A stretch of 64,000 nt of DNA, taken from positions 65,440-129,439 of the forward strand of contig CATZQR010000003.1 of the NCBI GenBank assembly GCA_958423255.1. Direction: 5' to 3'. The notes below the pieces were generated by a model. That model had not been told where the DNA came from and ran no database searches. It saw only the letters and a program-made list of their open reading frames with translations. The translations under genes and the position numbers were made by a program. The stretch is from an uncultured Bacteroidales bacterium. Its GTDB lineage: Bacteria > Bacteroidota > Bacteroidia > Bacteroidales > Muribaculaceae. Positions within the stretch are counted from its first letter, which is position 1. Every line of letters begins with the position of its first letter. Positions 53,882 to 60,906 of the stretch are shown here, piece after piece.

Positions 53882-53889
53882 TATCTTTG
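53882..53889 (+). promoter_or_regulatory. TATCTTTG -7 box immediately upstream of the cobalamin riboswitch
   Basis: Matches TAnnTTTG. It would place the TSS about 5-10 nt before the aptamer. Confidence 0.3.
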
Positions 53890-54190
53890 GGGCGACCAAG
53901 TTCACCGGGTGACCGAATCCTGCCCCCAGGAGGAGGTTGAAAAGGGAACGGGGTGAGAATCCCCGACAGTCCCGCTGCTGTGTGCTTTGCCGCTGACCGC
54001 GTCAGGCGCGGTGCCGCTCCGGAGGGAGCATGGCGCCGTTGACGCGCACAAATAGGTCGGCGGACCCCGGTCCGGCTCAACCGCGAGGAGAGCCACTGGT
54101 GCCCCGTCTGAAAGAGGCGCCGGGAAGGCATTGCCGGACCGACGAAGGGAAGAAGCGAGTCAGAAGACCTGCCCGAAGATGAACCGCGAG
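53890..54190 (+). ncRNA. cobalamin (B12) riboswitch aptamer
   Basis: The core gAAAAGGGAAcgGGGTGAGAATCCCCGACAGTCCCGCTGCTGTG matches the cobalamin consensus (AAGGGAA..GGTG.AAATCC..AC.G.CCCGC.ACTGT). The B12 box AGTCAGAAGACCTGCC sits at 54158-54174. There is a long GC-rich peripheral insert between them, and a possible P1 pairing gttca/tgaac. Confidence 0.8.
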
Positions 54191-60400: not shown

Positions 60401-60906
60401 GCATGCTCGGCACCACCTCGACCGGCAACGTCCGCGTAGCCCTGGCCGACTACCGCGCAGCAGCCGCCACGGCGGCCGAGGGAACGGAGACTGAGCCCTC
60501 GAAATTCCTCACCGAATGGAAATGGGTTGATCTCAGCGGTCTTGGCAACATCGACAAGCTGAAACTCTCGATTACCGGTTCGGCCAACCAGATCACTAAA
60601 GTGCCGAATTATGTGTGCATCGACCAGATTGGTGCCGCCGATCCCTCGGGCGTAGGAAGCGCCAAGTCCGACACCTTCGACGGTGGCATACGCATCCTGC
60701 TTCCCACCCCGCGCACTCTTACCGTGACCGGCGTCGACGGAGCCTACACCCTGCGTCTCTACTCGGTCGACGGCATCTGCCGCGACACTCATAAGCTTGA
60801 AGGAGCCTCGACGGTGAGCATCGACCGCCTCGCCCCGGGCACCTATGTGGCCGAAGTGACTACCGCCGACGGCGGCCGCCACACGGTCCGTATCCTCAAA
60901 AAGTAA
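54490..60906 (+). CDS. giant (2138 aa) multidomain T9SS cargo protein: N-terminal CUB-like repeats, central right-handed parallel beta-helix, C-terminal ~240-aa beta-rich domain, T9SS CTD
   Basis: The signal peptide is MKKLITSLLMLAAAAAWTSAWA. There are four or more CUB-like modules (YP.N.PYNYCGWV...; FYDAGGPDG...VYSG). The beta-helix has NxxxxGN-type rungs (IRNNTLSGG, VEGNTISEY, VKGNTVTKT, IVNNSIAL, VRNNLLQAV). The C-terminus GTYVAEVTTADGGRHTVRILKK is a T9SS tail. The in-frame upstream extension to 54196 runs over the riboswitch and would bury the signal peptide, so I rejected it. Confidence 0.85.
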   Translation: MKKLITSLLMLAAAAAWTSAWADPAEVTHPKKDKDSNPNAYYTVGDEGTIYHSMDYPKNAPYNYCGWVTFVPANEGDPLNIEFTEFTVTSTDQTGPFVYIYDDDTILKSKFTNYSDPAPEGYIAAITAENASAMVTSTTGKLAVLYAPKANKSGYTAVTGTYTAKVTSAPPTDMVFQEATLESAAGLISRGMTDVPLATITVKTKGSLNPLTLDALSLDLSALTASGLVSNLRIYDTAIDEANLLTTLADGATTLTASGVTLKGTSKFILAADASASGYGTIPAPTLSALTIGGTSYDADASALTALELSNAILMPDGGKHATFTIDADTKFYDAGGPDGNIPLNAEGTLTLVPATAGTIIKFDPASWKLFDTSSVGYNDIFRAYSGREVADDALIADLCAKGRILYSTAADGSMTIYFKSVQGNASSAKAGWEATLSAITPTDMTVGSITALTSQPAKPGAGDKVDNLLLFDVRAENTLNPLDLTALNFALPEGAKAATSITVSYLGSEADSKTSTPYGTAEIGADGTATVSGSLTLKEGSNIFAVAATVAGTANNGDIAGIRLTGITASGKTTPAEGVEATVEVENVCRLTEGEHSHTIYGPWQFTHTTASEYSSKYAASTSDHTVTFTPAEAGTVAQLTFKDFNVYYSATSYGTKAKFEVYSGTGANRTLLWSLTDPNKAAEGPGMKLRSTAADGSLTVVFNPNTSSSYYTANGWHATVEPFTDHAATVSAIEVAQASTDIVGPGTADAELIKFSVETEGTISPLTLNGINLTVKGKEALDKVKVYTTTDGTMANATLWGSAEMPAEGNALTVAPAEESALQPLPEAKTRFIIAADVKSVVDSDIAVDAAVSSLKFTDGSTYTVENGDPEGERLTKNIYILGADATQTVMVGSPIAFYDNGGPDGKSSPVECTVTFIPTDPEAKLVLDTQAFSIGGGKIHVFSGREVNEENRLGKATGYFTTTGPAELTSKAADGSLTLQIKLIGTTLDGFAMTVTPVPGVAIHVADVALTAASEVAATRGTTDTPVGHAVFSVEGNKNILSISGVKASVAGSTSIADITSVGVAYTSRLDRFNSTSMVGKAAPAADGTVEITFDQPVEIDEAGDYHFWLTGDFTATAEPGNIVEIALTDVTTSATEPVEIAEGTKAARSLKAGMAGSYRIGASDQADFATFALATEALEGGIQGSVIFLVESGTYAENIVIENVEGTSQENPLIFISQSGNAADVVITGKSYASSNDDMVRVVNTPWVAFRNITFAPTSSGYGNAIHFHNSSRHCTVENCVITSETLNSSTAKSGTNLIRTSAMSVDETPDKNYESVANTECDYLTIRNNTLSGGYISLYLSAAGYVGMPKATGMLVEGNTISEYCSKGIYLADQADFTVKGNTVTKTDLNKGSIYAMDVYRAEGEFSIEGNKLSTTFVNGVGASVSTSVIYMRGTSGHGGRDAAHKARIVNNSIALLGGAHYTNYGLFLANAGSTANAYGNMIIAHNSILVKSASPTARGGYALFINRSSEGCGLEVRNNLLQAVSASSPLNIWNDAELTNIAFSGNAFYGGSGNVDNQSTPHTMETYREASGDQTSVWKQVEFLSDNDLRLAEADGLAMDRVDGVDTDLEGTERGTTTTAGAYEFKQIVSETPVIAEGYPKMVKTADTSATVATRWSVGAQVYAMAVKADAEAPTAEQLKAQRPTACEADMEITTTFNFLDQLTAYRAYFLAVEPLGGESEIATVDFTTLETIEELTAEIMWQEEPFQAGEQIELYAVAEGGKEPYTYTWSDQTGTVDSDADIYSEAATRSRSYTLKVTSADGQTAYAKANVPVVTQNLAIATFEDLPLEPESSWMMDEHATEDTYTDAFFSGSMQFGNFPLVNWSAWSGYGFANETSTTFTDYKTSQMRNCVGGGAEGTTNYGVGYLYEGTNGSIAINVPETGVAVPGMYVTNSAWTIDYILHGSQGFGSAFADGDYLELVVEGMLGTTSTGNVRVALADYRAAAATAAEGTETEPSKFLTEWKWVDLSGLGNIDKLKLSITGSANQITKVPNYVCIDQIGAADPSGVGSAKSDTFDGGIRILLPTPRTLTVTGVDGAYTLRLYSVDGICRDTHKLEGASTVSIDRLAPGTYVAEVTTADGGRHTVRILKK

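Follow-up and report, generated by a model that had tools for sequence, protein, structure and literature searches.

A cobalamin riboswitch precedes the gene of a giant, putatively T9SS-exported protein with a predicted BtuJ-type B12-binding domain in an uncultured Muribaculaceae bacterium

Why should a cobalamin riboswitch be found in front of a single gene coding for a giant secreted protein? This question is raised by a stretch of 64,000 nucleotides from an uncultured Bacteroidales bacterium of the Muribaculaceae (contig CATZQR010000003.1, positions 65,440 to 129,439), hereafter called the window, in which such a riboswitch lies upstream of an open reading frame (ORF) of 2138 codons ending with a sorting domain of the type IX secretion system (T9SS). 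Competition for corrinoids shapes gut communities, and B12 capture in Bacteroidota is currently modelled on Bacteroides thetaiotaomicron, with the transporter BtuB and small surface lipoproteins (BtuG, H, J, K and L). The initial annotation of the locus held that a giant T9SS cargo under riboswitch control does not fit the described regulons, and suggested a secreted or surface-anchored corrinoid-scavenging protein. The latter suggestion is retained here as the best reading, given the riboswitch, the T9SS sorting domain and a domain of the B12-binding family DUF4465: the locus would be a one-gene B12-acquisition unit, in which a riboswitch-controlled giant surface protein, exported through the T9SS, presents a BtuJ-type B12-binding domain. 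We give this reading a probability of about three in four.

The riboswitch itself is clearly recognized. An Rfam scan of positions 52000-56000 returned a single match, to the cobalamin family RF00174, at 53873-54190 on the + strand (54.6 bits for a gathering score of 31.5, E 5e-12, model positions 1-189), which is also the sole riboswitch across the 64-kb window. Membership in the family is further indicated by the B12 box and the conserved core (GGGAA / GGUG..AAUCC / GCCACUG), all of which are present. The aptamer core GGGAAC-GGGGTGAGAATCCCC, with its GGGAA..GGTG..AATCC pattern, begins at 53944, the GCCACTG motif lies at about 54093-54099, and the B12 box AGTCAGAAGACCTGCC, read from the sequence at 54158-54173, is conserved among homologous leaders. 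The aptamer core and B12 box that had been proposed initially are thus well founded. The match extends over 318 nt for a model of 189 positions, with insertions of 35 nt and 103 nt, and the Rfam alignment seems to be mis-registered at two elements: helix P1 is drawn over the promoter box, and GCCACUG is aligned to a GCCGCU around 54013, the authentic motif falling within the 103-nt insertion. The true fit to RF00174 may thus exceed what 54.6 bits suggests. The functional RNA probably spans about 53895-54185.

The start of the transcript can also be predicted. The consensus of the Bacteroidota -7 promoter element is TAnnTTTG, and TATCTTTG at 53882-53889 on the + strand reads as a box of this type. 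When counted among distinct homologous leaders in a zone 35-85 nt upstream of the GGGAA core, such a box is found in 33 out of 33, at 43-78 nt from the core, for 0.89 expected from shuffled sequences, which corroborates the promoter box seen in the initial annotation. Transcription would start at about 53893-53897, just after TATCTTTG. The P1 helix drawn by Rfam, AUCUUUGGG with CCCGAAGAU, overlaps the promoter box and would sit upstream of this start; the promoter call was accepted, and P1 was thus moved downstream. An alternative P1, pairing GUUCA-C-CGGG (53900-53909) with CCCG-AAGA-UGAAC (54172-54184), is present in both the minimum free energy and the centroid folds of 53894-54192, so that the closing helix is able to form inside the transcript. 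Both of its strands are unchanged in the close relatives L001 (from the human-gut metagenome-assembled genome UMGS827, 95% identical to the window and probably of the same species) and L042 (86% identical), without covariation among these close relatives. In the same two loci, the strand AUCUUUGGG of the Rfam-drawn P1 gains mismatches, yet the TAnnTTTG consensus stays. In other loci, P1 starts 6-7 nt past the box.

What this leader might control is indicated by the C-terminal part of the protein. The domain of about 240 residues noticed there does exist; it had been left unnamed, and is identified here, from profile and sequence matches, as the BtuJ-type B12-binding beta-jellyroll DUF4465 (residues 1870-2047, 60097-60630 on the + strand). 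The match to PF14717 reaches 123.6 bits for a gathering score of 25 (E 1.4e-35, profile positions 2-176 out of 176), and the domain aligns (E 4.9e-30) with 9HMU, the crystal structure of a DUF4465 protein together with B12. A profile built on the C-terminal domain of the family matches all solved DUF4465 structures, namely 9HMU (1.7e-55), 4JQR, 9QPM, 9FCT (BtuJ1, 1.4e-29), 4E9K and 9I2L (BtuJ2); the value for D5EK51 is 2e-55. Eight distantly related DUF4465 proteins are reported to bind B12, and the HI-loop motif (G/N)TPAY(F) to hold a tyrosine which contacts B12 and is kept in 97% of the DUF4465 members (PMC13398666). The corresponding loop of the window protein reads KVPNYVCID and is aligned to NTPSYFCLD of BtuJ1, with P2039, Y2041 and D2045 (P-x-Y...D) invariant in all 14 aligned homologues. 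The window's own domain would therefore be expected to bind B12.

The two ends of the protein point to its route of export. The ORF is listed at 54196-60906; the ATG at 54490 was picked as the true start from the conserved signal peptide and the alignment of homologues, which gives a coding sequence of 2138 residues at 54490-60906 on the + strand, stop codon included. Its first 22 residues (54490-54555), MKKLITSLLMLAAAAAWTSAWA/DPAE, look by eye like a Sec signal peptide of the signal peptidase I (SPI) type, with cleavage at AWA/DP. There is no lipobox cysteine, the first cysteine being residue 65, and all homologues have similar non-lipoprotein signal peptides. At the other end, residues 2072-2138 (60703-60903) match the T9SS type-A C-terminal sorting domain (CTD) TIGR04183 of NCBIfam with 27.9 bits for a cut-off of 23; PF18962, present in many homologues, gave no match here at E<=0.01. 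With an SPI signal, no cysteine before residue 65 and a predicted T9SS export, the protein thus carries a BtuJ-type domain and is not a BtuJ-type lipoprotein. As had been described, the single gene of this giant T9SS cargo does directly follow a cobalamin riboswitch of the same orientation.

This association is far from restricted to one genome. A search over 5.8 billion proteins gave 41 homologues aligned over 70% or more of the query; with one exception they have 2041-2568 residues, and identity goes down to 24%. The scaffold size of about 2100 residues is conserved across the family, and the exact protein cluster of the giant protein comprises 1282 member sequences. A scan of GTDB genomes with eight of the closer homologue sequences located 41 loci, in Muribaculaceae, other uncultured Bacteroidales, Sodaliphilus, Dysgonomonas and one cultured Marinilabiliaceae strain; they come from gut, rumen and other metagenome-assembled genomes, plus this one cultured isolate. 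The conservation of the riboswitch at homologous loci, which the initial annotation had proposed as a check, was borne out by a motif scan: in 35 of the 35 loci with enough upstream sequence, the gene is preceded on its own strand by the aptamer core and/or the B12 box, the six loci without a motif match being four contigs cut upstream, L038 and L041. RF00174 is above threshold in all eight loci sampled (65-109 bits), and was also confirmed in L001, in L042, in L044, where the riboswitch is cut by the contig end, and in L038, the Marinilabiliaceae strain JC017, where it scores 94.9 bits and ends 178 nt before a homologue of 2638 residues. This cultured strain offers an entry point for further work.

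A B12-binding module is found in all 41 homologues. It is DUF4465 in 39 of them, and DUF5074 (PF16819, the BtuG-type propeller) in the two others, P0038 and P0040, with a full-length match at E 2e-104 in P0038. In P0038 (337-6762 of locus L044), as in P0040, the scaffold is kept, the BtuG-type propeller takes the place of DUF4465, and the cobalamin riboswitch is still directly upstream. A tail resembling a T9SS CTD ends all homologues but one, P0028, which has a type-I dockerin instead. These two exchanges on one and the same scaffold, DUF4465 for DUF5074 and CTD for dockerin, argue that the job of the scaffold is to present a B12-binding module. In locus L015, a 397-residue dockerin-bearing protein (3990-5183) is encoded between DUF5074 and the giant gene of a btu operon. 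Taken with P0028, it hints at a cohesin-dockerin assembly in some Bacteroidales B12 loci.

Genes of B12 transport are indeed close neighbours of the giant gene in several relatives. In L015 and L037, a TonB-dependent receptor comes first after the riboswitch, then DUF5074, a dockerin protein and finally the giant gene. The giant gene has its own riboswitch in L012 and L018, and downstream of it come another riboswitch, a small DUF4465 protein, a TonB receptor and DUF5074. L011 has one riboswitch for the giant gene and another for a small DUF4465 gene. All five of these loci (L011, L012, L015, L018 and L037) have btuB/btuG neighbours. From the BtuJ-type domain, the cobalamin riboswitch and this btuBG linkage in relatives, the gene belongs by function to the known B12 regulon. 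The view that it lies outside the described regulons thus does not hold by function; it does hold for the way in which the protein is built and probably exported. What is new here is the giant conserved scaffold, its predicted export by the T9SS and its control by a stand-alone riboswitch, the regulon logic being already known.

The comparison with known systems makes this distinction more concrete. In B. thetaiotaomicron, the genes of BtuJ1 and BtuJ2 belong to btu loci controlled by riboswitches, and their products are small lipoproteins of the cell surface (PMC13398666, PMC13616437). The window protein shares with them, and with the DUF4465 family at large (9FCT, 9I2L, 9HMU), the domain itself, the P-x-Y..D pattern of the HI loop and, by prediction, an extracytoplasmic location and the control by a cobalamin riboswitch; the linkage of the BtuJ loci to btuB/btuG recurs in relatives of the giant gene (PMC13398666, PMC13616437). 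In contrast, the BtuJ proteins have about 250-300 residues and a lipoprotein signal, whereas DUF4465 is here the penultimate module in a chain of 2138 residues, which has an SPI signal at one end and a T9SS sorting domain at the other, and the giant gene of the window stands alone, with no B12 transport gene in the 64 kb. More than 70% of the DUF4465 family are described as lipoproteins and the others as having periplasmic targeting signals, T9SS or giant forms going unmentioned (PMC13398666). BtuG (DUF5074, PF16819) and BtuH of gut Bacteroides are likewise accessory corrinoid-capture proteins under riboswitch control, BtuH holding its B12-binding domain on a stalk of immunoglobulin (Ig)/PKD-like domains (PMC13616437). 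Two members of the family, P0038 and P0040, bear a complete BtuG-type propeller on the giant scaffold, behind a riboswitch. The window protein differs from both by its jellyroll, as opposed to a propeller or the globular domain of BtuH, by a T9SS CTD in place of a lipid anchor, and by a size about 5-8 times larger. It resembles other T9SS type-A cargo, such as the gingipains and the SprB-type giant adhesins, by its N-terminal Sec signal, its C-terminal domain of the TIGR04183/PF18962 kind and its large, beta-rich, multidomain build. No T9SS cargo with a B12-binding domain or a cobalamin riboswitch was found in the literature searched, and nothing relevant came up for Muribaculaceae, BtuG and T9SS; the only co-mention of T9SS and cobalamin riboswitches comes from a Flavobacterium transcriptome paper that appears to be unrelated.

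How could such a unit operate? Transcription would begin just past the promoter box, and the 5' leader would fold into an aptamer of the adenosylcobalamin (AdoCbl) type. Cobalamin riboswitches are known to repress upon ligand binding. By analogy, the binding of a corrinoid would switch the downstream gene off, and the protein would be made when B12 is scarce, the aptamer being possibly coupled to expression through a conserved P13-like hairpin, which is discussed further below. The protein would be exported by Sec through its SPI signal peptide and then moved across the outer membrane by the T9SS through its type-A CTD. The T9SS secretes cargo with a CTD of this type; in Porphyromonas, the CTD is removed and the new C-terminus becomes linked to anionic lipopolysaccharide (LPS). 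Here also, the CTD is most likely cleaved and the protein joined to the cell surface through the new C-terminus. DUF4465 would in that case sit beside the outer membrane, capture cobalamin or other corrinoids, and hand them to BtuG/BtuB, while the other ~1800 residues, made of CUB, carbohydrate-binding module (CBM)-like, beta-helix and Ig domains, would point outward. Muribaculaceae and related Bacteroidales would thus place the same B12-binding modules as B. thetaiotaomicron on a scaffold of about 2100 residues, with the T9SS as the route and a riboswitch of its own. The locus would thereby tie the T9SS to vitamin acquisition, and it supplies a predicted function for a widespread family (1282 sequences in the cluster, 41 loci).

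Several observations weigh against this one-gene acquisition unit. The aromatic residue of the DE loop is a tryptophan (VTNSAW) as opposed to the tyrosine of BtuJ1 (Y146), homologues having either tyrosine or tryptophan at this place. About 85% of the protein is without an explained role. The aptamer of the window scores below those of its relatives (54.6 versus 65-109 bits) and carries large insertions, and neither an intrinsic terminator nor a helix sequestering the start codon was identified in the 300-nt spacer that follows it. Palindromic and MITE-like (miniature inverted-repeat transposable element-like) repeats have invaded the leader in the lineage of the window, so that the regulation might have decayed. 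Finally, no B12 transport gene was found in the 64-kb window, and any partner for the hand-off would thus be encoded elsewhere.

The first alternative concerns the fate of the protein once exported. It could be released into the medium or onto vesicles and return B12 to the cell in the manner of a haemophore, since some T9SS cargo is released and not anchored; in the same vein, the abstract of a preprint ties B12-binding proteins of B. thetaiotaomicron to extracellular vesicles (10.1101/2025.07.31.667871). Such a released corrinophore appears rather unlikely. The CTD is of type A (TIGR04183), the class which is attached to anionic LPS in Porphyromonas, P0028 has exchanged its CTD for a dockerin, which is another anchoring device, and a diffusible carrier of 230 kDa would be costly.

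A second alternative arises from the bulk of the scaffold, whose architecture was dissected by modelling. The predicted domain order is signal peptide, four pairs of CUB-like and CBM-like domains, beta-helix, Ig/PKD-like domains, DUF4465 and T9SS CTD. An AF2 model of residues 322-596 (pLDDT 91.8) shows two domains. The first one matches the CUB domains of neuropilin, PCPE-1, MASP, C1r and cubilin with a Foldseek probability of 1.00, single CUB domains aligning at TMt 0.76-0.81 and 2.3-2.9 root-mean-square deviation. For the second one, the matches are to N-terminal domains of GH33 sialidases from Bacteroidales and Tannerella. A BLAST self-comparison did not find internal repeats; hidden Markov models (HMMs) derived from the modelled unit were required to detect four copies of each domain, alternating over 54610-57954 of the + strand. 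The CUB-like copies lie at residues 41-159, 323-443, 622-726 and 891-999, and the copies resembling the sialidase N-terminal domain (BNR_assoc_N), with weak matches to PF14873, at 173-313, 444-596, 731-882 and 1008-1155. Some homologues carry PF00431 (CUB), whereas isolated segments of the window protein gave no match to it, even with the limit set at E<=1; given the CUB fold without this match, the label "CUB-like" is preferred. Three aspartates of the CUB-like domain (D334, D380 and D412) are invariant.

The central beta-helix is seen both by Pfam (Beta_helix PF13229 and NosD PF05048 at about residues 1230-1433) and in an AF2 model of residues 1150-1640, which forms a right-handed parallel beta-helix (pLDDT 90.2, pTM 0.92) assigned to residues 1156-1640 (57955-59409, + strand). 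The CUB-like repeats and beta-helix reported initially are thereby both recovered. In fold, the helix comes nearest to GH136 lacto-N-biosidases, PL6 lyases and alginate epimerases, with modest TM-scores of about 0.45-0.58, and a profile of the region gave no homologue among PDB sequences. As the fold search yields only generic carbohydrate-active beta-helices, no catalytic activity is claimed. Residues 1641-1830 (59410-59979, + strand) gave only sub-threshold matches to Ig_3, SprB and PKD, and are presented as weakly supported Ig/PKD-like linker domains.

Domains of these types typically serve to recognize proteins and glycans, and the models invite a more elaborate scenario. The array of CUB and sialidase-CBM-like domains would, with the beta-helix, bind glycosylated B12 carriers (intrinsic factor, haptocorrin) or dock onto corrinoid-producing cells, and the membrane-proximal DUF4465 (the BtuG-type propeller in some species) would take the vitamin, so that the giant size would be functional and not a mere stalk. 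The Foldseek list does include cubilin bound to intrinsic factor-cobalamin (3kq4, rank 30), and cubilin, the mammalian receptor of intrinsic factor-B12, is a B12-acquisition protein with an array of CUB folds. The resemblance of the second domain to sialidase N-terminal domains, that of the beta-helix to glycan-active enzymes such as the GH136 lacto-N-biosidases, the three invariant aspartates and the family-wide conservation of the scaffold at about 2100 residues all go in the same direction, and BtuG2 has been reported to strip B12 from intrinsic factor (PMC13616437). However, cubilin is one of many CUB matches and not the best one; the likeness is one of fold alone, with 11-15% identity and no evidence that the two share an ancestor or a ligand. 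All kinds of T9SS cargo commonly contain CUB, CBM-like and beta-helix domains, and homologues occur in rumen, termite and marine organisms, where carriers of the human type are irrelevant. The stripping of carriers, or a docking role, is thus considered unlikely. Were it true, the family would form a T9SS-dependent modular "B12 harpoon", with the binding module and the anchor (CTD or dockerin) exchanged between lineages. The binding targets of the CUB, CBM-like and beta-helix parts are in any case a question that the locus raises.

The long leader calls for a separate discussion. The aptamer looks like an AdoCbl-type RF00174 riboswitch by its core, its B12 box, its model helices, its peripheral extension and its position in a 5' leader just after a promoter. 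It differs from a typical one by unusually long insertions, by the ~300 nt between aptamer and start codon, by a P13-like hairpin about 50 nt past P1, and by the lack of a recognisable terminator or start-site sequestering helix in the window leader. In the 31 loci where both could be located and the riboswitch is directly before the gene, 161-490 nt separate the B12 box from the ATG.

The best conserved element past P1 is a hairpin with a CGNGG loop, which reads TGTCTT-CGAGGAT-TGAGACA in the window (54235-54254, + strand). It was found by pattern search in 25 of 34 leaders of giant genes, and related hairpins can be seen by eye in most of the others. Loop L5 is nCCCG in all giant-gene leaders examined, the UCCCG of the window lying within about 53967-53979. 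Some co-variation between L5 and the hairpin loop is seen across leaders, without a consistent pairing register. From its sequence and position, the 54235-54254 hairpin may be the P13/L13 regulatory hairpin and a candidate kissing-loop partner of L5. The riboswitches that precede btuB in L015 (548-751) and L037 have ACGGUG as L5 instead of nCCCG, and the CGNGG hairpin is absent from these two leaders, which suggests that two subtypes of cobalamin switch serve one regulon. The hairpin at 54390-54413 was also considered as L13, its GGGG loop being able to pair with the CCCG of L5, and was rejected as this loop is not conserved in close relatives.

In seven leaders (L011, L016, L019, L024, L027, L028 and L039), a strong hairpin followed by at least four T, and often by a longer run, lies 24-33 nt before the ATG, and is plausibly the intrinsic terminator of the expression platform in that subgroup. 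No such element occurs in the window, L001 or L042, and an ATG-proximal intrinsic terminator was therefore ruled out as a claim for the window locus. An anti-B12-box pairing within the spacer, which would provide an alternative ON structure, was convincing by eye in several loci; it reached p<=0.05 against shuffled sequences in only 6 of 34 leaders, the window not being among them, and was not retained. In the window, the aptamer might also be coupled to expression by Rho-dependent termination within the leader, which is long and partly C-rich, or by a structure that occludes the AU-rich region around the start.

The spacer also contains the hairpin of 11 bp which the initial annotation had placed at 54390-54413 and regarded as a possible terminator. 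It does exist, as a palindrome whose arms (54386-54399 and 54402-54415) are 93% complementary and include a perfect core of 11 bp, and a terminator scan finds it terminator-like on the - strand only, with no T-run on the + strand. Among close relatives, its loop varies (CCGGGG, CCCCGG, CCCTGG, CCAGGG). L001 has an element of 179 nt, MITE-like, with its own inverted ends and two more GGGACGCAC..GTGCGTCCC palindromes, inserted exactly at the palindrome; L043 holds the same 179-nt element, and L042 has two copies of the palindrome. In L042, a related element of about 125 nt lies inside the P2 loop of the aptamer, the promoter and the P1 strand being apparently kept. A partial copy of the palindrome is found at 29207-29236 of the window, in an unrelated intergenic region, and the sequence was not found in any locus outside the lineage of the window. 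Judging from these sequence features, the palindrome at 54386-54415 (+ strand) is a lineage-specific repeat of the REP (repetitive extragenic palindromic) or MITE type, and not a conserved terminator. More generally, GC-rich palindromes GGGAYGCAC..GTGCRTCCC and MITE-like elements with inverted ends of the GAGGATG..CATCCTC type populate the leader in this lineage; the sites of this repeat family are about 5740-5918 in L001, 5409-5535 and 5990-6076 in L042, 1-60 in L043, and 54386-54415 and 29207-29236 in the window. The contigs of L044, L045 and L046 all begin 336 nt before the gene, and that of L043 150 nt before it, so that independent assemblies break in the riboswitch or the leader. This is what repeated sequence, either several riboswitch copies or MITE-like elements, would cause.

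Could such insertions mean that the riboswitch no longer regulates, the gene being transcribed here from a promoter inside the 300-nt spacer? The score of the window aptamer, lower than that of its relatives, the repeat elements inserted in leaders of close relatives, one of them in the P2 loop of L042, and the lack of a recognisable terminator would be in line with a decayed or bypassed switch. However, the insertions have occurred at tolerant places (P2 loop, distal spacer), and between the window, L001 and L042 little or nothing has changed in the core, the B12 box, the P1 strands and the P13-like hairpin, in contrast to the diverging flanks. No TAnnTTTG box is seen by eye in the spacer, and the pairing of riboswitch and gene is conserved family-wide, which makes a decay of the switch quite improbable. 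A role of the 54390-54413 hairpin as the intrinsic terminator of the riboswitch is more improbable still: it is strong, GC-rich, located between aptamer and ATG and present in at least one copy in the window, L001 and L042, but it has no T-run on the + strand, is variable in loop and copy number, serves as a MITE-like insertion point, has a related copy in an unrelated intergenic region and is absent from all other loci, the terminator-like hairpins of relatives, 24-33 nt before the ATG, being unrelated in sequence.

The surroundings of the giant gene in the window are of another kind. Its neighbours, a GH31 enzyme, a 1024-residue ORF, an SDR and RlmL, are unrelated to it, and the same neighbours are found in L042. 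T9SS components (porK-N, sov, porU/V) gave no match among the window ORFs scanned, which were only part of all ORFs. Neither Pfam nor NCBIfam gave a match for the ORFs at 50342-53470, which are upstream of the leader or antisense to it. The 1024-residue ORF (50381-53455, + strand) lies directly upstream of the riboswitch; in L042 it is called with 861 residues, and the synteny is conserved. A hairpin at 53474-53510 follows its stop codon. At a distance, an intergenic tandem repeat at 29287-29397 (a unit of 31 nt, 3.6 copies, 72% matches) lies upstream of an ORF at 29436-30632, which precedes AcrB-like and OEP genes (30691-35491).

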